Source of the DNA: a virus
Direction: 5' to 3' (one strand)
Length of the DNA stretch: 64,000 bases
IMG/VR virus record: IMGVR_UViG_3300023717_000163
Part shown: positions 32,983 to 53,892 of the stretch, piece by piece
Numbering within the stretch: position 1 is the first letter of the stretch
How the letters are laid out: each line of letters starts with the position of its first letter
Position numbers and translations under genes: made by a program
The notes under the pieces: model-generated
What the model saw: only the letters and a program-made list of their open reading frames with translations
Database searches by the model: none
What the model was told of the DNA's origin: nothing

Positions 32983-34302
32983 ATGGCAACTAAAGGATTA
33001 GGAAATGAAACATTGGTGACCTCCATTCTGCGTTCCAATACAGTATTGGTGGAAGTTGGTGGTAGTGTCAGACGCATTACCGTGGAAAACTTCATGAATG
33101 CTATTAATAATGGTGACGAACAAATGTTGAGGCAGGTGGCTTGGGGGATTCCAATCAAACAATCAACCCAAAGTAGCACGAACTATGGTGTGATAGGTAA
33201 TACAGCCGCATGGACAGAATACAAGTTGTATTGTGGCCGTTATCTCGTAACGAATGATGGAAGGGCTGCTAAAATGTCCCCTACCAATAGTGCGGTGTTT
33301 GCTGATGGTACTGCGGTGGATGAAACCAAAGGGCATGTGATGTGGATAGGGCCACGTTTGTATTATCGTGTACAGACTGACAGTGTAAGTGGTGTACCAG
33401 TCTTATGGCTCTCGATGCTACCTATTGGCGGTGAGTTTATTGGTGGGGCAAATGGTGGAATGTATAACTGTATCGGTGCATACAAAGGCTCCATGTCAGG
33501 TAGCGCACTTGTTTCACGTTCAGGAGTTGCACCGGCAGGCAGCAAGACAATCAACGCATTTTGGAATGCTGCACAAGTGAACGGTAAGGAATGGGGACTG
33601 ACCGATTACGATCAGAGAAAGCTTATTATGATGTTGGGGCTGTCCCAGTACGGAGATACCAATATTCAAGCCAAACTTGGTTATGGTGTGGGTGGTAGCT
33701 CCAGTAAAGACTTGTGGGCTGCTGCGGCAGCATTGCAAACTGGCGCAACAAAGAGTCTCGGTGACAATTGGGGCAAAATAGCTATTTCTGTGGTGAATGG
33801 AAGTAATACTGGAGTGGATTGTTCACGGGTGAACATGATGGGTATAGAAGATCCTTATGGGTGGCAGTGGGAATTTCTGCAAGGAGTATTTTGCGGTAGT
33901 TCCAACAATAGTGCTCAAAGTGGAACGGAAATTTTCATTTACAAAGGAAACCGTTTACCGACTACTGCTGAATTAGCTGCGCATCCAAATGGTGAATACA
34001 GACAAGCTACCCGTCAGACAGCTTCCGGTCAAGTGCAGGAAATAATTCTTGGGGAGCATTTTGATATTTTCCCGAAAAAGATTGGTGGAAACAGCACTTC
34101 TTATTGGGCTGATTATTCATGGGCAAACACTACTGGGCAGCTGGTTCTTTGGGGCGGTAATGCGTATGCCGGTGCGTATTGCGGCCTCGCTTATGCGGGC
34201 TCGGATAGCGCTTGGTCGAGCTCGCGTGCGGACTTCGGCTCTCGCCTTGCGTATTTTGGGAATTTAACATTTGTTAGCGGTGCATCTTTGATGGCTGCAT
34301 AA
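32983..34302 (+). CDS. DGR target protein 1 (tail-fibre/receptor-binding candidate) with the C-terminal variable repeat VR1
   Basis: 439 aa. The C-terminus LVLWGGNAYAGAYCGLAYAGSDSAWSSSRADFGSRLA matches the TR 120 bp downstream except at TR adenines. Confidence 0.7.
   Translation: MATKGLGNETLVTSILRSNTVLVEVGGSVRRITVENFMNAINNGDEQMLRQVAWGIPIKQSTQSSTNYGVIGNTAAWTEYKLYCGRYLVTNDGRAAKMSPTNSAVFADGTAVDETKGHVMWIGPRLYYRVQTDSVSGVPVLWLSMLPIGGEFIGGANGGMYNCIGAYKGSMSGSALVSRSGVAPAGSKTINAFWNAAQVNGKEWGLTDYDQRKLIMMLGLSQYGDTNIQAKLGYGVGGSSSKDLWAAAAALQTGATKSLGDNWGKIAISVVNGSNTGVDCSRVNMMGIEDPYGWQWEFLQGVFCGSSNNSAQSGTEIFIYKGNRLPTTAELAAHPNGEYRQATRQTASGQVQEIILGEHFDIFPKKIGGNSTSYWADYSWANTTGQLVLWGGNAYAGAYCGLAYAGSDSAWSSSRADFGSRLAYFGNLTFVSGASLMAA
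34139..34246 (+). repeat. DGR variable repeat VR1
   Basis: About 108-bp match to the TR. Of the 15 differences, 14 fall at TR adenine positions. Confidence 0.7.
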
Positions 34303-34425: not shown

Positions 34426-34532
34426 AGCTGGTTCTTTGGGGCGGTAATGCGAATAACGGTGCGAATTGCGGCCTCGCTTATGCGAACTCGAATAACGATT
34501 GGTCGAACTCGAATGCGAATATCGGCTCTCGC
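34426..34532 (+). repeat. DGR template repeat (TR)
   Basis: Non-coding copy rich in AAT/AAC triplets (reads LVLWGGNANNGANCGLAYANSNNDWSNSNANIGSR). Lies between the target gene and the RT. Confidence 0.7.
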
Positions 34533-34818
34533 CATACTTATTTATCGTAGAGTAATCTGCGAGTTCTCCGAGCCATGACCTTGCAGGATTTATATCGTTG
34601 CAACGTAGTAATCAATTGGTTACGATGTCAGAAAATCAAGAATGCGGAAAGGTTGCCCAATTTGCGAAAGGCAACAAGCGGTGTTAGTAGGTTGGTTCTC
34701 GAAAGCTCCGGGCGAATTATTCAAGCAAGTAAAAACAGCTTGCAGTTATCGGAATAATTAAAATAGTCTGAACAAGACAAAATTGGAAGTATGGTGTAAA
34801 TTTTAAAACAAAGCAGCA

Positions 34819-36362
34819 GTGAATATTGGAAGAAGTGATATTGATTGGAAGAGTCTATCGCATAATGAAATTGATAGAATTATAGCGGAAAGGATAGAGG
34901 CTGACAATAAACGGATAGAAGCAAACGGTGGAAAGAAATCTAAAAGAGCCGGGTATATTCTTGAACGTATAGCAGAGATAAATAATTTACGTGAAGCGGA
35001 CAAAGAAGCACAAGATGGGAAGGTTAAGAAAAACCGCTTTATCAGGCGGCATAATCTACACCCGGAAGAAGACCTCCGAGCTTTGCAGTTGATGATCCTG
35101 ACATTGGATTTTCCGGCACCGGATTATAGCGTAATGAGAGTAAAAAGTGATGCAGGAAAGGTTCGAGATATTGTCAAACAGAAATATTTCCCGTGGCGTA
35201 TATTGCACCATGCAATTATGAGGGTGATTGAAGAAGATGTTTATAGAAATTTGATTTATGATACAAGTGCGTGTATCAAGGGAAAGGGATTACATTTTGG
35301 AGTAAGGAGAATGAAACGTTTTCTTCACCGGTACCCGGAATACAAATGGTTCGTAAAGACTGATTTCAAAAAGTTCTATCAAAGTATTCTTCATGAGCTT
35401 ATTGTTGCTGCATTGAGAAGGAAATTCAAAGATGAACGATTTATTAAATTGATCGAGATAGCTGTTTTATCGTATGACAGCGGAACAGAGTTAGTTGACG
35501 TATTGGAGAATGAAGTTGAACGGAAGAAGAGGTGTTCCGATTGGAGCATTTACAAGCCAACCTATCGGGAATTTTGCGGCAAGCCGGATAGATCATACAA
35601 TGAAGGAGAAATATCGTGTCAAATGCCTGCATAGATATTGCGATGATAATGTTATGCTGGCTCGTTCTAAGGCCGAAGCGTTGTTTCTTATTCGTGCGTA
35701 TGAACGGGAAAGTGCAAAAGTTGGGTTGGTAGTTAAAGCAAACAGTTGTATTGCTCCGATAGGAACAGAAACAAAAAATGGGAACAAAAAGCATAGAAAG
35801 CGAAAACGTAGTAAGAGGAAGAAGGATTAACTTTTTGGGCTATTGCTTCACGAAAGATAATGTTCGGATGCGTAAAAATATGAAAAAGAACTTTGCCCGA
35901 AAGGTGAAACGAATAAAAAGCCGGAAACGTAACCGCGAGATACGAGCTTCATACTGGGGCTGGTGTAAGTGGGGAGATTGTAAGAATTTATGGAGAACAA
36001 TAACAAATAATGATATGAGTTTTGCAGATAAAGGTATCAAACAGAGTGGTAGAACAAAGGACGGAAAGAAGTTCTTCGATGTAAAAGAGACAAGATTGAT
36101 GGATATTCTCAATGTCCCTATAACAGTGGTGGACTTTGAAACGAATGTGAAGACAAAGCAAGGTGAAGGTAGATATTGTGTTCTTTTTGAACAGAACGGA
36201 CAACGTAGCAAATTCATAACGAACTGTTACAATCTGAAAGATGTGTTGGATCAGGCTCGCGAAGCGGAGAATAACGGTCAGAAGATTTTTCCAGTGGAAA
36301 ATGTGATTGTCAAGCGGCGTTCGTTAGGTGACGGGAAGAGTGCTTATTATTTTGAAGAATAA
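34819..36362 (+). CDS. DGR reverse transcriptase, interrupted by two apparent frameshifts (three ORF-track pieces)
   Basis: GTG start. Motif A VKTDFKKFYQSILHELI is in frame 1. Motifs B and C GVPIGAFTSQ and RYCDDNVMLA are in frame 2 (35495..35830). INFLGYCF is in frame 3 (35778..36362). The shifts fall at purine and A runs near 35515-35535 and 35770-35790. Confidence 0.7.
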
Positions 36363-36383: not shown

Positions 36384-36779
36384 ATGAAAAGTTATGGAAC
36401 TCTTGTAGGAGAACTGCCGACTGGTATTGAATTTGTAGTTGAAGGTGCGTTGCTACGCATTTACTTCGACTTTGAGAGAAGAGAAGCTGTTCAAAAGGCC
36501 GGTTCGGAAGATGTGGTGGTTGAAGACCAGTATGTCTGTGAAAACGTGGATGTTGAAGGGGAACATGATTATGACAGTATTGTAAGTGCCATTATCATGG
36601 AACGTTATGATGCGAATAAACGTGATGCCATTTTCGCCAACTTGGAAATGGCACGTGATATGGCTTCGGAACTTGACGAAGGTAAGCGTGCCGAATATCT
36701 GAAAGAATACACTGATTATCAGAGTTATCGTATCAAGGCTAAGGAGATCGCAAAAGAAGTATTAGCAAAATTGAAGTAA
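36384..36779 (+). CDS. Hypothetical acidic protein
   Basis: 131-aa ORF after the RT. Confidence 0.45.
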   Translation: MKSYGTLVGELPTGIEFVVEGALLRIYFDFERREAVQKAGSEDVVVEDQYVCENVDVEGEHDYDSIVSAIIMERYDANKRDAIFANLEMARDMASELDEGKRAEYLKEYTDYQSYRIKAKEIAKEVLAKLK

Positions 36780-40453: not shown

Positions 40454-40855
40454 TTAGAAAGGCAAATCGTCTTTTTGTTCCCCAAAATCCACTGGCGGTT
40501 GAGGTATGGCAGTTTGTACGGGTGCCGCGGTGGATGATGCCCCCTGATAATAAGTTTGGGGCTGTTGCGCTGCGGTAGGCTGTCCTGGATTACGGAGTGT
40601 TGCTTTCCAGCAAGTAATGGAGTTAAACCATTTTCCTTGCCATTCATTCGCATTAATATCTATTTCAATATCAACGTCTTGCCCGACTGCTAATCCAAAA
40701 TTCTGAATATTGCTATTCATTACTGAAAAAGCGACTTTTTTAGGGTATTGGCCGGGAATTTCCAAAACGAAATCTTGTCTTTGCCAGTTGTTACCATTTT
40801 TTGAGACACCCGATTGTATCGGTTGTGCCACAATAATTTTTCCTTCTAATTTCAT
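40454..40855 (-). CDS. ssb: Single-stranded DNA-binding protein
   Basis: OB-fold-like N-terminal domain, a Gln/Pro-rich linker and the C-terminal acidic tail DDLPF. Confidence 0.8.
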   Translation of the reverse strand: MKLEGKIIVAQPIQSGVSKNGNNWQRQDFVLEIPGQYPKKVAFSVMNSNIQNFGLAVGQDVDIEIDINANEWQGKWFNSITCWKATLRNPGQPTAAQQPQTYYQGASSTAAPVQTAIPQPPVDFGEQKDDLPF

Positions 40856-42993: not shown

Positions 42994-43397
42994 TTGATCT
43001 TTCCATGTTCCTTATCCAGTTCATACTCAAAAAATCCTTTTGCCTTATCATAAAGTCCGTCCTTTATATCAGAGAAATACATAGCGGCATTAAAGGCTTT
43101 CAATGCTGCCACACGAGCTTTCTTCTTATAATAGTCTGCCCGTTTGATCGTATTTTCTTCTTTTCTACGTTCTTGCTGTTCCAAATATCGGTCAACCGCT
43201 TCTCGTCCCCAACGGAACATGTCTTCTTTGTCGGCAAAGGTGGCAGATTCTTCACGGATCAGCCTTTTCTCCGAGGAAATGACATAAGCTGATATTCCTT
43301 TGTATCTACGAATGGAAACGGCTATGTCGAAACCTTTATAATTTTGCTGTTCAACATAGCCGCCAAGAGTATATGGGAAGTCTGTCTTTTCTATCAT
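42990..43397 (-). CDS. Hypothetical protein
   Basis: 135-aa ORF, ATGA-coupled to rtcB. Confidence 0.45.
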   Translation of the reverse strand: MIEKTDFPYTLGGYVEQQNYKGFDIAVSIRRYKGISAYVISSEKRLIREESATFADKEDMFRWGREAVDRYLEQQERRKEENTIKRADYYKKKARVAALKAFNAAMYFSDIKDGLYDKAKGFFEYELDKEHGKIK

Positions 43398-44665
43398 ACA
43401 GCTTTGATATTGATTAGTGGCACAATTGTATCAATAATTTCTACCGTAGGTTCTATAAGCTCTTTTATTTCCTGAACATTTTTGTATGCCATAGGACTTT
43501 CATCCAATGTCCCTTCACATACGGAAGTGGAATACACTTTGCTCATTTGGGTTTTGAATGCGTCCATTGATAATCTTTCTTTAGCTTCGGAACGGGAGTA
43601 TAAGCGTCCTGCACCATGTGGTGCAGAATAGTTCCAGTCTTTGTTTCCCTTACCACGACAAAGAAGAATACCGTCTGCCATATTCATAGGAATCACAACG
43701 TAATCATTGGCGTATGCGGCAATAGCCCCTTTACGGATTATCATATCATCAAAGCTGATATAGTTATGGACTGTCTCAACGGATATTGTAGCGTTCCAGC
43801 TCAAAGTTCTGATTATACGCTGTATAATCAACTTGCGGTTGAATGCGGCATATCCTTGTGCGATCACCATGTCACATAAATAGTGGAGCATTGCTTCATT
43901 TGTGAGATACCCGGAATATTCGGCAAATTTTTCCTTCAAACGTAGTATTTCAGTTTGCATGAATTGTGGCTCAACAGTGGACTTCAAGCGTTGAATTTCA
44001 TTAGAAAAAGCCTTTTTATCAAATTTTGCTATTTCTGCATGGTATTTACAGACCTTCACACCAAAGTTGCGCGATCCGGTATGTATTGTAAGAAATATAT
44101 TATTGGTTGACTCGGCACGCCCCAGTTCTATAAAGTGGTTTCCACCTCCCAATGTACCTAAAGAGTTGTAGAATGTGCCTTCATTTATCCCCACCTTCTT
44201 ACAAAGTTGTGATACATATTCTTCATTAATAACTGGTTTGGTTAGTTGGTATTTAGAGCAGAACTGATCCATTCTGATAGATAAGAAGGTAAACAAATCT
44301 TCCTTTTCTTGTTTGGATAAGGGTTGTTGGTTAATCTCAAATCCCATAGGTATGATGGAACGGATTGCATGATTAATGTCCGGGAAAGAACCTTCTGTTA
44401 TTGCGTTTTCAATTTCTACACACAACATTCCACAACCAATATCCACTCCGATATGATTGGGGTTGACACGATCTGTAACTGGCATGGTGAATCCAATCAC
44501 TATATCTACTCCTTGATGGGTATCAGGCATAATACGAACCGGAACACCAGTCGTAACCGGATTGTTCAAAATGTTTTGTATCGTTCCAATAGCTTCATTT
44601 TCTATTGTATTTGCAAATATTTTACAATCTTTGCCGAATTTTCCTTGTAATTCAATCATAATCAA
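43394..44665 (-). CDS. rtcB: RtcB RNA-splicing ligase
   Basis: MPDTHQG, GVDIGCGM, LGTLGGGNHFIE, HNYI, SAPHGAGR and DESPMAYKNV all match RtcB active-site motifs. Confidence 0.85.
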   Translation of the reverse strand: MIMIELQGKFGKDCKIFANTIENEAIGTIQNILNNPVTTGVPVRIMPDTHQGVDIVIGFTMPVTDRVNPNHIGVDIGCGMLCVEIENAITEGSFPDINHAIRSIIPMGFEINQQPLSKQEKEDLFTFLSIRMDQFCSKYQLTKPVINEEYVSQLCKKVGINEGTFYNSLGTLGGGNHFIELGRAESTNNIFLTIHTGSRNFGVKVCKYHAEIAKFDKKAFSNEIQRLKSTVEPQFMQTEILRLKEKFAEYSGYLTNEAMLHYLCDMVIAQGYAAFNRKLIIQRIIRTLSWNATISVETVHNYISFDDMIIRKGAIAAYANDYVVIPMNMADGILLCRGKGNKDWNYSAPHGAGRLYSRSEAKERLSMDAFKTQMSKVYSTSVCEGTLDESPMAYKNVQEIKELIEPTVEIIDTIVPLINIKAV

Positions 44666-44871
44666 ATCTTTTCGTTAAGTTTTTCAAGAAGTTCATTCGC
44701 ACAGTTCTTTGCGTATTCTTCATCTTCATCATGAAAGGACTTGACTGTTATCCAAATCCCTGCAAATTTAACTTGCACTTTGTAATCAGGAAGAAGGTAT
44801 TTCTCTCTGTTTTCGCTGCGATTATCTTCTACGAAGGTAGTCGTTTTATTAATTCTGTACTGTTTCATCAT
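44662..44871 (-). CDS. Hypothetical protein
   Basis: 69-aa ORF. Confidence 0.4.
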   Translation of the reverse strand: MMKQYRINKTTTFVEDNRSENREKYLLPDYKVQVKFAGIWITVKSFHDEDEEYAKNCANELLEKLNEKI

Positions 44872-45124
44872 TATTTATTTCTTTAGAGTGGCAATTTCTA
44901 TCAAGTATCTCAATGCACTGTTTAATCCCAGTATCAAATCCTTCTTTATAGTCTTTGGTATGCTCACCTAAAACATATATAGTCATTGACAGCCAAAATA
45001 GAAGTATGCCAACGGATTTATACCAGCATGGTAAAGATATAGAAAAGGGTTTTAAGGTGATAGAGAAATCACCGATCCACAGAAGACCGGCAATGAGCAT
45101 GAGTAAATATAAGACTTTCATCAT
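44849..45124 (-). CDS. Small membrane protein
   Basis: 91 aa with two or three hydrophobic helices. Confidence 0.4.
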   Translation of the reverse strand: MMKVLYLLMLIAGLLWIGDFSITLKPFSISLPCWYKSVGILLFWLSMTIYVLGEHTKDYKEGFDTGIKQCIEILDRNCHSKEINNDETVQN

Positions 45125-45611
45125 TTATCATTGTTAAGTTCAACATATTTGCCTTGTAAAGAGCAGTTCCTTAAAATTTCGGCATTTTCCCGGCCAAATG
45201 CAATAAGAACACTACCGCAACCGGGGCTGTCCCCACGTGTTCCATCGGGACGGAAGAATTTTATTCGATTTCTCAAAAACATCATACCAGTTGCTTTCGT
45301 GAAGATGATGTCTTGAAACTTATTGCTGTCACACCGGTTAAAAAGTAGTGCTATACCGTTGCCGTGTTCTGCCAATTTCTCTACAAACTGCCATATAAGC
45401 GGTTTGGAGTACGGAGGGTTAAGCCAAATTCGCCCCCCCAATTTTGTACAAGACCATTGTCCTGCTTGTTGTACATGATTTTTGCAGTAGGCCAAAGAGG
45501 GTGCATGGGAGCACATGGATCAAGGTCAAATTCACCTAATGCTTCAATGATTTCTCGTGGTGTGTACCATTCATCGGAAGCATTTGCAGATCGTTCAAAA
45601 GATGTATTCAT
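45121..45611 (-). CDS. DNA N6-adenine methyltransferase (phage Dam, DEWYTP...NPPY type), frame broken at a G7/C7 homopolymer
   Basis: The N-terminal part (45381..45611) carries DEWYTPREIIEALGEFDLDP. The C-terminal part (45121..45516) carries WLNPPYS. The frames join only if the tract at 45433-45439 has 8 rather than 7 residues. Confidence 0.7.
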
Positions 45612-45844
45612 GTATTACTTACATTTAGGATTTTACGAATTTCTATATGATCACAATTTTCATCAGCCTTTTTCAGAATATAAGCAATCTCTTCTTCCTT
45701 ACTCATGTTCTGTGGACGTTTCGTTGCTTCTGCTCTCAATTCAGAAATAATTTTATCTACTTCGGGATTAGGAGTTTCATATAATTTTTTAAGTTCAGCG
45801 GCTCTACGTTTAATAAGTCGCTCTGTCTTTTTGTTTAATTTCAT
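45608..45844 (-). CDS. Hypothetical protein
   Basis: 78-aa ORF. Confidence 0.45.
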   Translation of the reverse strand: MKLNKKTERLIKRRAAELKKLYETPNPEVDKIISELRAEATKRPQNMSKEEEIAYILKKADENCDHIEIRKILNVSNT

Positions 45845-45845
45845 C

Positions 45846-46745
45846 TTACAACATTTTAAAGTATTCCTTGCATAAAAATCCTTTTCTTGGTGAAAAGTCT
45901 TTGAAGTCGCAACTCATGTATATTTCCTTCCTATCAGCCCAATGTGCCATATCTTTCTGCCACTGTGGAATAATTTGGTGTGGATTGTTCAGATCACGAA
46001 AGGGTTGACAATGTGGAAGAAAACGGCGGCTTTTAGATTTCCAGTAGTTGACGCGCGCAAACGATTCTTTAAAGTCCATAAGGATGCAATACAAGAAATA
46101 TTCCCCTTTATATCCATACTTGTCTATTAAAGCGGAAGCACGTTCAACTTCTGCAATCTGTCCCGGTGTATCGCATCCAAAGCGAATACGTTTAATCCAT
46201 TTTACTTTTGCAAGTAGCCGAGCGATTTCATCCGTGATTAAACGGGCATCCAGTCCTTGATTAAAATCCACTTTGATACCCAGTTTGATGATTTTCTCTA
46301 TTTGCTGCAAGCCATAGTTTGAGGCCAGTATATTATTATCCATAAGGATAGCTTTTTTCCGTCCGGCTGTTATTTCCTCAATATCCATATAAGGTGAGAT
46401 TTTTCCTTCTTTTTTAGGAACAACACACCATTTACACCGATTGGGACACCCACGTGTCAGAAATCCATAGGATAAATTGGAGTCAATATTGTAGATCGAG
46501 TAATCAGGTTGAAGACGATCAACCTCAACTGGAAGAACTTTTTCAATATCATATCCGGTACCACCTTTTTCTATTTGGTTAGTATTGATATAATAGTTAT
46601 AGTCGGGTGTGAAAGTGAAAACTTTAGCTGCATATACTTTATCATATTCACATAGTGGATTATACCATTCCACTTGATCGCCTCTTGCTTTGTGGTAAGC
46701 ACTGATCTTCATAAGTGCTAAATTGGGGGGGGGAATTGCTATCAA
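45846..46745 (-). CDS. Radical SAM protein
   Basis: GCPNRCKWC (CxxxCxxC). A G9/C9 tract lies 16-24 nt upstream of the ATG at 46709, or inside the gene if the TTG at 46745 is the start. Confidence 0.55.
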   Translation of the reverse strand: MIAIPPPNLALMKISAYHKARGDQVEWYNPLCEYDKVYAAKVFTFTPDYNYYINTNQIEKGGTGYDIEKVLPVEVDRLQPDYSIYNIDSNLSYGFLTRGCPNRCKWCVVPKKEGKISPYMDIEEITAGRKKAILMDNNILASNYGLQQIEKIIKLGIKVDFNQGLDARLITDEIARLLAKVKWIKRIRFGCDTPGQIAEVERASALIDKYGYKGEYFLYCILMDFKESFARVNYWKSKSRRFLPHCQPFRDLNNPHQIIPQWQKDMAHWADRKEIYMSCDFKDFSPRKGFLCKEYFKML

Positions 46746-46766
46746 CGGCTAAAATTCCAATATTCA

Positions 46767-47114
46767 TTATTCTTCAAATTTAGGTTTTGGCATCCATGCT
46801 ATCGGTTCCCATGACGGAGGTATGCTGCTCATTGAAGAGTAAATTGGGTTACCTTTGTACGTGTCATAGATATAACCATCCATGCAGAACCATACATTGT
46901 TGCTATATGTACCGTTAAAAATCGCACCATGTTTACATAGAATGATGATGTCTTCATTTTCATCCGGTAACCGTTCTTTCACTGATACCCACGGAGGTTG
47001 TTTTGTCTGCCATCTGGCTCCTTCTTTGAATCCTATTCTAAAACAAGTTATTTTATCCCAGTCAGGATGTACGCCTCCAATTTCATTTACGGCTTCTTCT
47101 AATGTCTGTTTCAT
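46767..47114 (-). CDS. DUF551-like phage protein
   Basis: PWVSVKERLPDENEDIIILCKHG matches the DUF551 signature. Confidence 0.5.
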   Translation of the reverse strand: MKQTLEEAVNEIGGVHPDWDKITCFRIGFKEGARWQTKQPPWVSVKERLPDENEDIIILCKHGAIFNGTYSNNVWFCMDGYIYDTYKGNPIYSSMSSIPPSWEPIAWMPKPKFEE

Positions 47115-47116
47115 AT

Positions 47117-47785
47117 CTATTTATCAAATAAATTAGTTTGAACCAACCTTCCTCTCTCTGTTTTTATCTCCCCAAAACATTCCCGGTGAAAACGTTCTTC
47201 TTGTGCTTCAAAGTATTCTTCATCTATTTCAGTTGCATAGAAATCGAATCCAAGTCCATAAGCAGCTATTCTGCTGCTTCCTGAACCTAAATGACTATCA
47301 AAAATTTTGTCTCCCTCTTTGGCGTTTTTTCTTAATATTTCAGCATATAATTTCACTGGCTTCTGACAACGATGGATATTTCCACCTCGTTCTCCAATTG
47401 TACACCGGTTTAGAGTTATGATCCGAAGAGCCTTGTCAAAACTACTCCATGCCAATTCACCGTCAGACATAGTTAATCCATGTTGTCCTTTATCCCAAAC
47501 AATCCAACCCATTTTGGGAGGAAGATAGGTAGTAAAGTAGTTACCACCAAAAATTATTTGATTCTTCGATACCCTGAATAGTTCCTCAAAATATTTCTTT
47601 CCGGGGGGGGACTTATCCCAATCCTTTCTTTTATATTGTTTAAAGCCTAAATGCTTCGGCATCCCACCTTTGTGCATTATGTCTATGCCATACTGGGGAT
47701 CGACTATCGCTAAATCAAAGAACTTATCAGGAATCCCCTTCATGTATTCCATACAGTCCATGTTATATACTTCGCTTATCGGCAT
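47117..47785 (-). CDS. DNA methyltransferase, beta-class (motif IV before motif I); N6A or N4C
   Basis: DLAIVDPQY upstream of FDSHLGSGSS. An in-frame G8 tract encodes SPPGK. Confidence 0.6.
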   Translation of the reverse strand: MPISEVYNMDCMEYMKGIPDKFFDLAIVDPQYGIDIMHKGGMPKHLGFKQYKRKDWDKSPPGKKYFEELFRVSKNQIIFGGNYFTTYLPPKMGWIVWDKGQHGLTMSDGELAWSSFDKALRIITLNRCTIGERGGNIHRCQKPVKLYAEILRKNAKEGDKIFDSHLGSGSSRIAAYGLGFDFYATEIDEEYFEAQEERFHRECFGEIKTERGRLVQTNLFDK

Positions 47786-47799
47786 TATTTATATCCTTT

Positions 47800-48033
47800 C
47801 TATTCTGTTATTATTAATTTCATGTGCATTCTTGAAATCATTTTCTCTTCTTCTTTCAACTTATGATAATAATCTATAGCTTCATCTTTAGTATTGAATG
47901 TACCAACACACGAATAATGCCAAGATCCGAAAGGATCTTTGAGGATATACAAGTTGTATGAACCTAAGACCGTTTTCGCCAAATAGTAAGGATCTCGTAT
48001 CATAATGTTCATTCCATTTTTATTTACTCGCAT
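47800..48033 (-). CDS. Hypothetical protein
   Basis: 77-aa ORF. Confidence 0.4.
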   Translation of the reverse strand: MRVNKNGMNIMIRDPYYLAKTVLGSYNLYILKDPFGSWHYSCVGTFNTKDEAIDYYHKLKEEEKMISRMHMKLIITE

Positions 48034-48875
48034 AGTCCATGAAACAGACTCATGCAGGCATATCCACCTTCCGGCTCGAACATATCAGGGGTATGTTCTT
48101 TAACGTACTCCAAAACTTCCTCTACATAAGGATATTGTTTGTTTTTACAGAATCTTTGAGGTATGTATAATGGAGGAAAGAAGGAATGTCCTACGCTTTT
48201 CTCTGCTTGAATTAGGCGTTGGCACATTTTAGGATCATTTTTGGCTATGAGTTCGATTTCTTTGTGCCGACACATGATACACGGGAAACATCCAACACGT
48301 GAGAATCCACGATAATACAATGGATTCGGTTTCTGCCCTGCATCCAGTATGCAATCTATAACTTGCTGTGCACTCCATTTGAAGATAGGTCTTAGAACAG
48401 AAGCGTCATATTGGGAACACCATTCTTTGACATCCTTACTTCGGTAGTTTTCAGTTCTTCCTTTCTTATTAGGTTGAAAATACGATTTGAAGTACATACA
48501 TTCCTCTTCCATTGCCGCACGTGCTGTACTTTCTCCGGCTCTGATACCTTGTATGATAATGCAGCTTTCTTTCAAAGAAAGTACATAATCAATCATTGGC
48601 TTCATTTTTAGTTCACTGGTACAAAATCGTGCATTCGTGGAAGGAAATCTTTTCTTATGAGCTGCCAAAGACACAAAATCATATTTTGATTTGAGAGTTA
48701 TAAGTCTTACACCCATTTGCAGACAAACATCATTCACATGTTTATATGTGTCAGGGTGTTCCCAACCGGTGTCACAAAACACAGCGGTTAAATTCCCCCC
48801 CCCATATTGTTTGAAGGCTTGGATTAAACATGCTTGTGAATCCTTACCACCTGAAAAACTTACTAATATTTTCAT
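48024..48875 (-). CDS. PP-loop ATP pyrophosphatase, PAPS-reductase/QueC superfamily
   Basis: SFSGGKDS P-loop and a C-terminal GCFPC...C Cys cluster. An in-frame C9 tract encodes YGGGN. Confidence 0.6.
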   Translation of the reverse strand: MKILVSFSGGKDSQACLIQAFKQYGGGNLTAVFCDTGWEHPDTYKHVNDVCLQMGVRLITLKSKYDFVSLAAHKKRFPSTNARFCTSELKMKPMIDYVLSLKESCIIIQGIRAGESTARAAMEEECMYFKSYFQPNKKGRTENYRSKDVKEWCSQYDASVLRPIFKWSAQQVIDCILDAGQKPNPLYYRGFSRVGCFPCIMCRHKEIELIAKNDPKMCQRLIQAEKSVGHSFFPPLYIPQRFCKNKQYPYVEEVLEYVKEHTPDMFEPEGGYACMSLFHGLCE

Positions 48876-48877
48876 TT

Positions 48878-49207
48878 TTATGCCATTTCAATTTTTACAT
48901 ATTCATTTTTATTAATCCCGGCACTACCTTTGGGAGAATACACTAATCGGCCTCCATTATCCAATATCTTTTGTACATCTTTCATAGCTTGGTATGCTTG
49001 GGTATAGTCTTTGTATTCTTGGTGGCCTATTGGATATTTGCAATATCTTCTACCACCGTCAGGCATGATGCTGATACCGAATACTGTTTCATAAGTTTTT
49101 CGGTTGAAATTCTGTTGAGTCCTTACTTTCATTTTTTTTGATACATTTTCCCAGTTTAAGTATAAATACACATTCGTTATCCGGTGCTCCCCAATTGGTG
49201 TTACCAA
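48878..49207 (-). CDS. Hypothetical protein
   Basis: 109-aa ORF. Its start may be the internal ATG, since it overlaps the next gene by 119 nt. Confidence 0.35.
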   Translation of the reverse strand: MVTPIGEHRITNVYLYLNWENVSKKMKVRTQQNFNRKTYETVFGISIMPDGGRRYCKYPIGHQEYKDYTQAYQAMKDVQKILDNGGRLVYSPKGSAGINKNEYVKIEMA

Positions 49208-49505
49208 CTCCGATGGTTATAGATTCAAGTTCAAAAAGCATTGTCCGTTTGGTGTAGCCAAAACGGAAGCGAACATGAGTGTATTCTTTGGGGTGAAAGC
49301 CGTTTCCACGTGTAATACAAGAAAAACAAATAGCTTTCTTACAATAGAAACCAGTCTTTTCATAGGAATTGCGACCTCCACATTTTGCTAATCTTCCGAT
49401 CCAGTATTTCTTGATCTCTCTGTATTCTTCTTTCTTATTTCCGGATTCGATCATTTCATACCATTTTGCTTTTAATGGCAGGTCAAGGATTTTCATATTA
49501 ACCAT
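49089..49505 (-). CDS. ASCH-domain protein
   Basis: SGNKKEEYR fits the GxKxxExR ASCH signature. Confidence 0.45.
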   Translation of the reverse strand: MVNMKILDLPLKAKWYEMIESGNKKEEYREIKKYWIGRLAKCGGRNSYEKTGFYCKKAICFSCITRGNGFHPKEYTHVRFRFGYTKRTMLFELESITIGVGNTNWGAPDNECVFILKLGKCIKKNESKDSTEFQPKNL

Positions 49506-49739
49506 AGTCTAAAAGAGTTGCGGATTCTGTTTGTCGTGAAGGATTTTTTGAACACGTTCAATTTCTTCATCTACTTCACGCTCAATTTGTTTACTTATTC
49601 GTAAATCTATCTGTCTCTTATTTTTTAAATATTCTTTTTGGCAACGGCGCATTTCCACCACTTTGTCGAAAAAATCTTTTGGAGTCATAGATTTAAAAGG
49701 TATGGAAAAGGCCGCTTTGATGCGGCCTCCCCAGTGTGA

Positions 49740-50324
49740 TTACTTTTTTCCAATCAGAAAGTCTTTCCACAATTCTTTGAATTGTTCTCCAAAGTAAATT
49801 GCGATTTCACTTGATTTTACAGCAAGGCGAGAGCCGATATACGCAGACGAGGACGACCAAGCGGAAGCCGAGTTCGCAGAAGCGAGGCCGCAAAACGCAC
49901 CGAAATTCGCAGAACCGCCCCAAAGAACCAGCCGATTACGATCCTCTTCGTCCATTTCATCAATTTCTTTTTGATTATAAAGATAAAACCACGGCGTATA
50001 ACGGTATTCATCTTTAGTAAATCGTGGAAAATCAGGATCGTTGTTTAACGCACGGGCAATAGTGTATAGTTTGATGTAGGCGAGGTGTGCAATATCAGCC
50101 ACTTCTTCTTTGTGTCCGTCTTCATCTTCAACAAGTAGGCGAACAATGGGTTTTACACCTATTGCTTCACAAGCATCTTCGTAGGTTTTAATATTGTGAT
50201 AATCTGTATAATCCGGCTTTTGCTTTCCGAATAGGGCTGTTAGAATACTAATTGCTTTAGGACAGTCGTTTGCTTCACTAAAAGCGGCTGTTACCTTTTC
50301 TTGTGTGATTTTAAGTTCTGACAT
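49740..50324 (-). CDS. DGR target protein 2 (194 aa) carrying the remote variable repeat VR2
   Basis: C-terminal LVLWGGSANFGAFCGLASANSASAWSSSSAYIGSRLA. All 17 nucleotide differences from the TR fall at TR adenines. Confidence 0.6.
   Translation of the reverse strand: MSELKITQEKVTAAFSEANDCPKAISILTALFGKQKPDYTDYHNIKTYEDACEAIGVKPIVRLLVEDEDGHKEEVADIAHLAYIKLYTIARALNNDPDFPRFTKDEYRYTPWFYLYNQKEIDEMDEEDRNRLVLWGGSANFGAFCGLASANSASAWSSSSAYIGSRLAVKSSEIAIYFGEQFKELWKDFLIGKK
49826..49933 (-). repeat. DGR variable repeat VR2 (about 15 kb from the TR, on the opposite strand)
   Basis: Reverse complement aligned to the TR by hand across its full ~108-bp length. The 17 mismatches are all A-to-N. Confidence 0.65.
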
Positions 50325-50332
50325 AATGTAAA

Positions 50333-51085
50333 TTATTTATTGTTAATACTATATCCGAATAATGCAAAATCTCCCCGGCACGGATCATCCGGGAAAATTG
50401 TTTTCATGTAATTGGTTACTTGTTGAACCATTTTCCAGTCCTCTGTTTTGCGTGTTGTTATCCCAAGCTGATGTGCCATTTTTGCAACATGCGCATCCAA
50501 TGGTATGTATAATTCTGTTGGATGAATAATAGTCCAAATACCTAAATCCACCGGCGATTTTCGTACTACCCACCGTAGAAACAGACAAATACGCTTGCAT
50601 GGAGAATCACGCTCCAATTTTGGAATACCTTTTACGCCACCAAAATCTGTTTGTATTTCACGGATAACATTGTTGTAACCCTCATAAAATACTTCCAAAT
50701 CATCCCATTCCTGATATATGTTGTACAACCGCTGGCAAATGCAGAAGAAGTCATGGTAGGTGAACATACGGTAGAAGGTATTTGTATTTTCTTTGTATTG
50801 TTCCCATACTTTGTTCATAATGAAGTCATAAGGAGAATTACCCATTAGATTATCCAAAATTTCTGCTTGCTGCATTATCAGTTTGCGATTCCCGAAAGCT
50901 ATCCATGAAGTAAGAAAGGCACTGATTTCTATGTCCTTTTTATCACTGTACTTATGTGGGAAGAATATAGGATCATCTTTTATAAAATCAGGTGTTTCAA
51001 ATTGTTTTGCCCAGTCAAGTAGTTTGTTTCTTAGTTCTTCCATAATATTCTTCTTTCCATTTTTTGAAAGCGGCTTCTTTATCAT
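50333..51085 (-). CDS. HhH-GPD superfamily-like protein (DNA glycosylase fold)
   Basis: IPLDAHVAKMAHQLGI resembles the vDTHvfRv.nRlgl helix-hairpin-helix motif of Nth/MutY-type enzymes. Confidence 0.4.
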   Translation of the reverse strand: MIKKPLSKNGKKNIMEELRNKLLDWAKQFETPDFIKDDPIFFPHKYSDKKDIEISAFLTSWIAFGNRKLIMQQAEILDNLMGNSPYDFIMNKVWEQYKENTNTFYRMFTYHDFFCICQRLYNIYQEWDDLEVFYEGYNNVIREIQTDFGGVKGIPKLERDSPCKRICLFLRWVVRKSPVDLGIWTIIHPTELYIPLDAHVAKMAHQLGITTRKTEDWKMVQQVTNYMKTIFPDDPCRGDFALFGYSINNK

Positions 51086-51989: not shown

Positions 51990-53095
51990 TTATAATTTAG
52001 ATAACCAATATTTCCATACTCGTGAGGCTACTTGTGCCATCATAACGGGTGGTACACTCATTCCACAGATATAATGTGGGGATTGGTTGAGGAAATGATA
52101 ATCTTGTGGAAATGTGGATATATTACATACTTCTGACCGTGATAAATATATAGGCTGCTTAAAAGGAATAATTGAGTCTGCATGAGTTGTTAGGGTGTAG
52201 CTTACTTTGTTCTCATATAGATATTGTTGATTAAAAAAGCCTCGTTTTCCAGTTTGTTTCTTATAGGCCTCTGCCAAAGCAATATCTCCTGCCACTCTCT
52301 GCTCAAATAACTTTCTCATTTTTACGCCAATAGGCTTTCCCTTGTAATCCGCATATTCCCCATAATATATTTCCGATTCATTAAATTCCATGTCGATGTA
52401 TGGCTCAACATTGAAGAGGTCTGAAACTTTTAGGAAATGGGCTCCCAAATCATGTCTGATACATATAAAGAATACACGTTCTCTTTTTTGAGGTACTCCC
52501 ATTTTAGAAGCATCAAGAAGAAAATGCTGACAGTAATAACCAGCTTCCTCAAAGCCTTTGTATATACGTCTGACATAATCAATCGCATTCCCTAAAAGAA
52601 GTCCTTTTACATTTTCAGCAATAACGACTTTAGGTTTTAAGCGTTTGGCAAGTGCAATAAAATCAAAAAAGAGCGTGTCTAAAACTTGTGTCTTTTGACC
52701 TTCCTTGAATTTCTTTTCTTTACCCCACGCATCTTCACGTAATCCCGACATGCTAAATGTACTGCAAGGTGGTGATCCGTCCAATATATCTAAATTGTAC
52801 AGTTCTTCGGGAAGATTATTCCTTTTCACTAAATCACGAATATCTTCCAAATAACTATACTGGGGATGATGGTTTGTTTCATAGCATTTCATCATTCGTG
52901 GATCAATCTCATTACAGCCAATAACATCGTAACCTGCTATTTTGTAACCCATAGTAGAGCCACCGCCACATGCAAAACAAGAAAATACCTTTCCCTTATC
53001 TTTAGTAAAAACAGCATCTTCTAAAGACCAGCGATAAGGATAGAGATGTTGTGTATGGGGGGGGTAATTACATCTTTCATCATTCCACCTCCCAT
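51990..53095 (-). CDS. DNA cytosine-5 methyltransferase whose N-terminus (motif I) is out of frame at a G8 tract
   Basis: PPCSTFSMSG and ENVKGLL lie in the annotated ORF. Motif I FSCFACGGG is upstream of the annotated ATG, in frame but with no start codon. The ATGs at about 53084-53095 join this frame only if the G8 tract (53057-53064) becomes G9. Confidence 0.7.
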
Positions 53096-53616: not shown

Positions 53617-53892
53617 TTATAATGATATTGTTTGGGTGTATTTCAATTCTCCGGTATATCCACGTGCTTTCAATTCTGCGATAAGTTCCCGTGGAGAAAA
53701 TTTTGCCAATTCAGGATTGGAATATATTTTCTTCAAATTCCCCCCCCCCGGAGTTTTCTTACGGTTTCTGGCATAAACATTACCGCACTCTTTACAATAT
53801 GTCTGCAATCCATCTTCGGTTGAAGCATTTTTCCAAAACTCACTGACCGGAAGTTCCCGGCCACATTTGCTACATTTTTTTAATTTTTCCAT
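53617..53892 (-). CDS. Zinc-ribbon protein
   Basis: CSKCGRE...CKECGN. An in-frame C10 tract encodes PGGGN. Confidence 0.45.
   Translation of the reverse strand: MEKLKKCSKCGRELPVSEFWKNASTEDGLQTYCKECGNVYARNRKKTPGGGNLKKIYSNPELAKFSPRELIAELKARGYTGELKYTQTISL

Follow-up and report, generated by a model that had tools for sequence, protein, structure and literature searches.

A remote variable repeat in the gene of a 194-aa protein as the very probable second target of a DGR in a LoVEphage-type Bacteroides prophage

The window analysed here, a stretch of 64,000 nucleotides from the IMG/VR virus record IMGVR_UViG_3300023717_000163, carries on its minus strand a gene for a 194-aa protein (49740-50324) whose 3' part contains a remote variable repeat, VR2. 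This gene lies within an early DNA-modification block and on the strand opposite to that of the DGR cassette. Directly upstream of it is a DUF2400/TIGR02757 gene (50333-51085, minus strand), which ends with its stop codon 8 nt from the ATG of the VR2 gene and probably corresponds to the MutY-like nuclease of Benler et al., and further upstream is a gene for a C5 cytosine DNA methyltransferase (51990-52952, minus strand; PF00145, E 1e-41). On the other side, 8 nt past the stop codon of the VR2 gene, there is a terminator-like hairpin (49705-49732, minus strand) made of GGCCGC-loop-GCGGCC and then a T-rich tail. A 59-aa ORF (49509-49688, minus strand), annotated in all relatives, separates this terminator from an ASCH-like gene (49089-49505, minus strand) that is annotated as ASCH in relatives; a 59-aa gene is also found 3' of the VR2-family gene in a distant locus (L016). 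The downstream block (43394-49505) additionally encodes, all on the minus strand, a PAPS-reductase/PP-loop protein (48024-48875), an N6/N4 methyltransferase (47117-47785), a radical SAM protein (45846-46745), a Dam-like methyltransferase (45121-45516) and an RtcB tRNA ligase (43394-44665). A preliminary description of this DNA had called the carrier of VR2 a non-fibre protein and had placed it between ASCH and HhH-GPD-like genes within a DNA-modification cluster, and the annotation of the neighbourhood agrees, with the 59-aa ORF intervening on the ASCH side and the DUF2400/TIGR02757 gene standing on the other.

VR2 belongs to a 112-nt repeat present in three copies in the window. The non-coding TR copy (34427-34538, plus strand) precedes the reverse transcriptase (RT) by 280 nt; VR1, the local variable repeat (34140-34251, plus strand), forms the 3' end of the gene for a 439-aa tail protein (32983-34302, plus strand; PHROG 5302); and VR2 (49821-49932, minus strand), with a mutable part at approximately 49838-49913, encodes residues 131-168 of the 194-aa protein. 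The full-length alignment of VR2 with the TR had previously been given at 49826-49933, essentially the same segment. An ungapped comparison over the 112 nt found 19 mismatches between VR2 and the TR, and all 19 correspond to TR adenines (10 A>T, 7 A>C and 2 A>G), among them the codon changes AAT>TCT, AAC>TTC and AAT>GCT quoted in the earlier account. The 17 differences counted there, all at TR adenines, are those of the mutable part, to which 2 more are added at the 3' end (TR positions 34534 and 34536). Since the TR contains 25 adenines in 112 positions, the chance of finding 19 out of 19 mismatches at adenines is about 0.223^19, or approximately 4e-13. In addition, a 22-nt anchor taken from VR2 matched only the TR, VR1 and VR2 sites in the window and gave 0 matches in 100 shuffles. 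A chance similarity of VR2 to the TR was therefore ruled out, because of both the absence of matches in the shuffles and the restriction of all 19 mismatches to adenines. VR1, for its part, differs from the TR by 16 changes at adenine sites plus T>C at 34520 and T>G at 34538.

The 2 mismatches at the 3' end of the repeat deserve separate consideration. TR positions 34534 and 34536 are changed identically in VR1 and VR2, and therefore both variable repeats end in GGCTCTCGCCTTGC, compared with GGCTCTCGCCATAC in the TR; VR1 and VR2 both read CGCCTTGC where the TR reads CGCCATAC. These shared differences look like the distinction between IMH and IMH*, and the IMH adenine pair is invariant across all 35 VR2 copies compared below. 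The IMH-like 3' end that VR2 has in common with VR1 occupies 49821-49835 (minus strand; GGCTCTCGCCTTGCT). A hairpin or cruciform common to both variable repeats was sought downstream of this IMH-like end and none was found. The spacer between the TR and the RT (34539-34818, plus strand) is presumably, judging only from its position, included in the TR-containing RNA, and its first 100 nt yielded no significant fold.

The RT of the cassette (34819-36362, plus strand) is distributed over three overlapping frames (34819-35634, 35495-35830 and 35778-36362), each of the two steps from one frame to the following one being a +1 shift. When the three frames were joined, the translation found its best match in the Bordetella phage DGR RT 8ub7_A (E 2.1e-14), which ranked ahead of group II intron and retron RTs, in an alignment that crosses the first frame junction and resumes in the third frame. 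The joined translation contains YCDD as well as PIGAFTSQ, which we take to be the IGxxxSQ-type motif typical of DGR RTs. Five independent relatives, some of them phages obtained by induction of cultured hosts, are annotated with the same three-frame split, which is therefore not a sequencing error of the window. The shifts would fall within approximately 35495-35530 and 35763-35830, the second of these stretches being A-rich with A6 and A5 runs. An RT occupying all three frames, with putative programmed frameshifting, has been described by Benler et al. (2021; PMC8008677), and production of a putative full-length RT as a single protein would need two +1 frame changes. No Avd-like accessory protein was recognised among the ORFs near the cassette, there is no room for an Avd gene between the VR1 gene and the TR, and searches of Pfam, NCBIfam and PDB sequences gave no match for the 131-aa ORF that follows the RT (36384-36779).

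The preliminary description had proposed that VR2 variation be examined across related prophages, and this comparison was made with a set of 35 genomes composed of 29 IMG/VR contigs, GenBank relatives and the window itself. The 35 genomes carry 31 distinct VR2 sequences, with 525 of 541 differences from the TR placed at adenines. All four bases occur at every one of the 23 mutable adenine sites, and nucleotide diversity reaches 0.613 at TR-adenine sites, compared with 0.010 at the other sites of the variable repeat and 0.027 in the rest of the gene. In six GenBank relatives VR2 departs from the TR at 11-19 positions and never at a non-adenine, and the TR, read in five GenBank relatives, is 100% identical in all of them. 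At the protein level, the hypervariable columns (2-3.3 bits) of an alignment of 40 close 194-aa homologues are exactly the 13 codons with a mutable TR adenine, while the remaining columns average 0.06 bits. VR2 is thus undergoing diversification in natural populations while the TR remains constant. Together, the adenine pattern and the variation in relatives bear out the earlier proposal of a remote second DGR target on the opposite strand, 15 kb from the TR.

The 16 differences that fall off adenines include a recurrent one at TR index 93 (window position 34520), a T located between adenines in AATATC, which is changed T>C in VR1 of the window and T>C or T>G in VR2 of five other genomes; such changes could be either a TR polymorphism or low-level misincorporation at non-adenines. 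Furthermore, two LoVEphage isolates (OY725593 and OY731444) have an identical VR2 and a different VR1, one of the VR1 copies having a one-codon deletion, which suggests that the two targets do not change in step.

The reading frame that carries VR2 is a genuine gene, as the preliminary description had assumed. The possibility of a non-coding ORF at 49740-50324 was discarded on the basis of an end-to-end match of the 194-aa protein to PHROG 11581 (E 2e-48), its homologues, the constraint on the gene and the total lack of internal stops in the 35 genomes. A search of 5.8 billion proteins returned 306 homologues, and a full HMMER scan of 1.84 billion cluster representatives, clustered at 50% identity, found 1,363 clusters at E<=0.001 and 488 at E<=1e-10. 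Two clusters defined at 90% identity contain 37,449 and 14,127 distinct sequences. Members are mostly full-length proteins of about 190 aa, and the VR-like segment is an intrinsic and conserved part of them. The protein has no Pfam or NCBIfam match, and inspection of the sequence by eye found neither a signal peptide nor a membrane segment. By these searches, the 194-aa protein belongs to a large and unannotated family. Some metagenomic versions of 216-219 aa (P0001-P0004 and P0006) have 22 aa of the VR segment duplicated internally, and in another (P0146, 433 aa) DUF2400 is fused to the VR2 protein by read-through; assembly errors caused by mixed VR populations, or else frameshifts, probably account for these forms, genuine duplications being the less favoured explanation.

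We then considered whether the two targets share a scaffold, since the preliminary description had suggested a common C-type-lectin-like fold. BLASTP aligned residues 131-168 of the 194-aa protein with residues 386-423 of the tail protein only, that is, the 38 residues encoded by the variable repeats, which are 71% identical, and hhalign aligned 40 columns only between the family profiles of both targets, so neither method found homology beyond the VR segment. A weak match of the 194-aa protein to the tail family PHROG 5302 covers residues 120-172. This agrees with the earlier view that a single TR diversifies two otherwise unrelated proteins, the similarity between them being confined to the VR-coded residues. 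An AlphaFold model of the 194-aa protein from a deep alignment of 99 sequences reached a mean pLDDT of 83.9, with residues 136-162 below 50; a model from 32 close homologues (pLDDT 48.8) was unusable and was discarded. The only matches of the predicted structure in a viral structure library were uncharacterised members of the same family, one of them from a crAss-like virus, and no solved fold matching the model was detected. Searches of PDB sequences with the family profiles and with the tail protein gave nothing meaningful. The C-type lectin domain published for the LoVEphage/Quimbyvirus target was not reproduced here, and the accessible part of the supplementary text of Benler et al. contains no lectin alignment for the target. 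A shared lectin fold is consequently possible but not demonstrated, and the preliminary interpretation is supported only in part for this reason.

The window belongs to a known group of phages. Positions 23636-64000 are 98-99% identical to LoVEphage (also known as Quimbyvirus), PV4-TP1 and BI-TP1, phages of Phocaeicola/Bacteroides, and both LoVEphage (Van Espen et al. 2021; PMC8525569) and Quimbyvirus (PMC8008677) align to one and the same prophage of B. dorei (CP011531.1). A protospacer listed for Quimbyvirus in the supplement of Benler et al. is found at 45380-45414 of the window with one mismatch; the same positions match a CRISPR spacer of Bacteroides sp. 3_1_40A, the window carrying the exact version of the spacer, and lie in an overlap region of the Dam-like methyltransferase gene block. 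Unlike the rest, window positions 1-23635 have no megablast match to the LoVEphage records, nor to any of 50,697 phage records. PHROG matches identify in this left part a tail sheath, a major head protein, a large terminase and a portal. The window is therefore a mosaic relative of LoVEphage, and its head and tail-sheath module appears to be either different from that of LoVEphage or much more diverged. No tRNA genes are found in the window, and LoVEphage reportedly has nine.

The layout of the window is that of Quimbyvirus/LoVEphage in the positions of the variable repeats, the strands, the neighbours of VR2 and the three-frame RT, and it has already been described. Benler et al. (2021, Microbiome 9:78; PMC8008677) reported two variable repeats. 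The first falls in a protein whose gene is downstream of those for the tail fibre; the second lies away from the structural module and on the other strand, with a MutY-like nuclease, methyltransferases and a tRNA ligase as neighbours, and these authors concluded that the second-target protein probably acts in phage-host conflict. More recently, Dahlman et al. (2025, Nature; PMC12629997) described four prophage species with a second distal variable repeat near counter-defence genes. The two-target arrangement was thus published for this phage in 2021 and restated in 2025, and the novelty implied by the preliminary description does not hold.

What is new in this work is that the family of the 194-aa protein is the remote second DGR target also in two unrelated Bacteroides phages, Versailles and BT-TP2. 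Versailles (ON453897.1, 58 kb) has a single-ORF RT, a TR near 53832 and VR1 at approximately 53630 in a tail protein, and its remote variable repeat, at approximately 10550, lies within a 193-aa homologue that is 37.8% identical to the window protein and is encoded in the early region between recombination and replication genes. This remote repeat has 15 of its 16 mismatches with the TR at adenines. The Versailles homologue is annotated as 'tail protein', an annotation that is probably due only to its VR segment. BT-TP2 (PQ571279.1, 45 kb) presents a TR near 40635, VR1 at approximately 40350 in a giant tail protein and a remote variable repeat at approximately 124, in a family member located beside regulatory genes in the early region, with all 13 mismatches to the TR at adenines. 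Some features differ among the three phages: the remote target of Versailles is on the same strand as the TR and 43 kb away from it, whereas that of the window is on the opposite strand; Versailles and BT-TP2 have single-ORF RTs, in contrast with the three-frame RT of the window; and the TR/VR types of these two phages (LLSATA... and VVYRS...) are distinct from that of the window (LVLWGG...). With three phages and three VR types, the coupling of a tail protein to this small protein through a single TR has therefore recurred and is not an accident of a single lineage. The literature search found no paper on two-target DGRs in Versailles or BT-TP2, and the four species with double variable repeats of Dahlman et al. 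may overlap with these cases.

Other members of the family were found in comparable surroundings. The pair formed by DUF2400 and the VR2-family gene is kept in a relative only 54% identical (L016), another member shares an early region with genes for RecT, a sigma factor and a C5 methylase, and another is 2.5 kb from Tad2-like and Sequestin anti-defence genes. Methyltransferases are near the family gene both in the window and in L012. None of the loci examined places a family member in a tail module. The partial contigs L012 and L016-L018 contain no TR, an absence that is uninformative because remote TRs can lie more than 15 kb away.

The DGR mechanism, in which a transcribed TR is converted by an adenine-misreading RT into a cDNA that replaces the variable repeat, is established for the Bordetella phage BPP-1. 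The DGR of this phage was reportedly described by Liu et al. in 2002. BPP-1, with Mtd as its tail fibre target and a bRT-Avd complex, resembles the window in the adenine-specific transfer from TR to variable repeat, the IMH-like 3' end and the related RT. In BPP-1 the only target is structural and adjacent, the RT is a single ORF and Avd is its partner; the window, unlike BPP-1, has a second target that is remote, non-structural and encoded on the opposite strand, its RT is split and no Avd was recognised near the cassette. Bacterial DGRs with multiple targets can also serve several variable repeats from one TR, some of them far from the cassette and in either orientation. Surveys including such bacterial systems are said to have been made by Wu et al. 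(2018, NAR) and Roux et al. (2021, Nat Commun). Their targets are mostly cellular surface or signalling proteins, whereas the remote target in the window is a small, predicted cytoplasmic phage protein.

Taken together, these results indicate that VR2 is very probably a second target on which the one DGR of a LoVEphage/Quimbyvirus-type Bacteroides prophage acts in trans. At its core, judging from the repeats and from what occurs in BPP-1, there would almost certainly be mutagenic retrohoming from one TR into two variable repeats. Counting against this reading are the lack of a recognised Avd-like protein near the cassette, the two +1 frame changes that a one-protein RT would require, the failure to find a hairpin common to both variable repeats past the IMH-like end, and the 16 differences off adenines. 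We infer the following steps by analogy. The TR would be transcribed, and the DGR RT would copy the TR RNA into cDNA, misreading adenines; this cDNA would then replace any genomic segment having flanking homology and a 3' IMH-like end. Two such segments would be available, VR1 in the adjacent tail protein and VR2, 15.3 kb away and on the other strand, in the predicted cytoplasmic 194-aa protein.

Regarding the role of this protein, our best guess, proposed tentatively since it falls short of even odds, is that it may be an intracellular hypervariable binder, made together with the early DNA-modification genes and acting in counter-defence. Its ligands might be variable host defence proteins or proteins of competing phages. 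This best guess derives from the gene neighbourhood. In a wider and somewhat less probable form, which we regard as possible, the whole family of about 190 aa could be a dedicated cytoplasmic, DGR-diversified counter-defence binder, coupled through the TR to tail-fibre diversification in several unrelated Bacteroides phages and built on a scaffold that maybe is not a recognisable C-type lectin.

The alternative that survives best, although unlikely, is that the 194-aa protein is a virion or tail accessory, such as a receptor-binding adaptor or a fibre-associated factor, in which case VR2 would serve host range as VR1 does. The identity of 71% between its VR segment and that of the tail protein, together with the weak PHROG 5302 match, the 'tail protein' annotation of the Versailles homologue and the co-diversification with a tail protein from one TR in all three phages, are consistent with such a role. 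However, the similarity to the tail protein is limited to the VR-coded residues, no signal peptide was seen in the sequence by eye, and the gene is placed on the opposite strand in an early DNA-modification operon with a terminator at its end; in four other phages, too, the homologues occupy early, recombination or anti-defence regions and never tail modules.

More doubtful is a role of the 194-aa protein as a subunit that lends variable specificity or targeting to the neighbouring DNA-modification or repair enzymes (the glycosylase-like DUF2400 protein, the methyltransferases and the PP-loop enzyme). The spacing of 8 nt to DUF2400, the retention of this pairing in the 54%-identical relative and the nearby methyltransferases in the window and in L012 would fit with it, but no DUF2400 adjoins the family members of Versailles, BT-TP2, L012 and L018, and we know of no DNA-modification system with a DGR-type variable subunit, which also counts against this role. 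Finally, any segment with the right flanking homology can become a target, and VR2 could in principle be a passive by-stander, a fossil or accidental copy overwritten without useful variation, but this is very improbable given that the VR-like segment is conserved throughout the 1,363 clusters (50% identity) that make up the family, strong constraint acts on the remainder of the gene (entropy of 0.06 bits and pi of 0.027), the 35 genomes contain no stops, and the family is targeted in three phage lineages with three VR types, which argues for selection on the pairing.

The targets of phage DGRs have long been held to be receptor-binding tail proteins only. If the 194-aa protein is, as we tentatively favour, an intracellular and non-structural binder, targeted hypermutation would be used inside the cell too, most plausibly against host defences. 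As this idea is already in the literature for this phage (2021 and 2025), the finding adds nothing new in this respect; what is sharpened here is that the remote targets of three phages belong to one large unannotated family without a detectable relative of solved fold. LoVEphage is among the most prevalent human gut phages and is now both inducible and engineerable (PMC12629997), so that the role of the 194-aa family is experimentally approachable.
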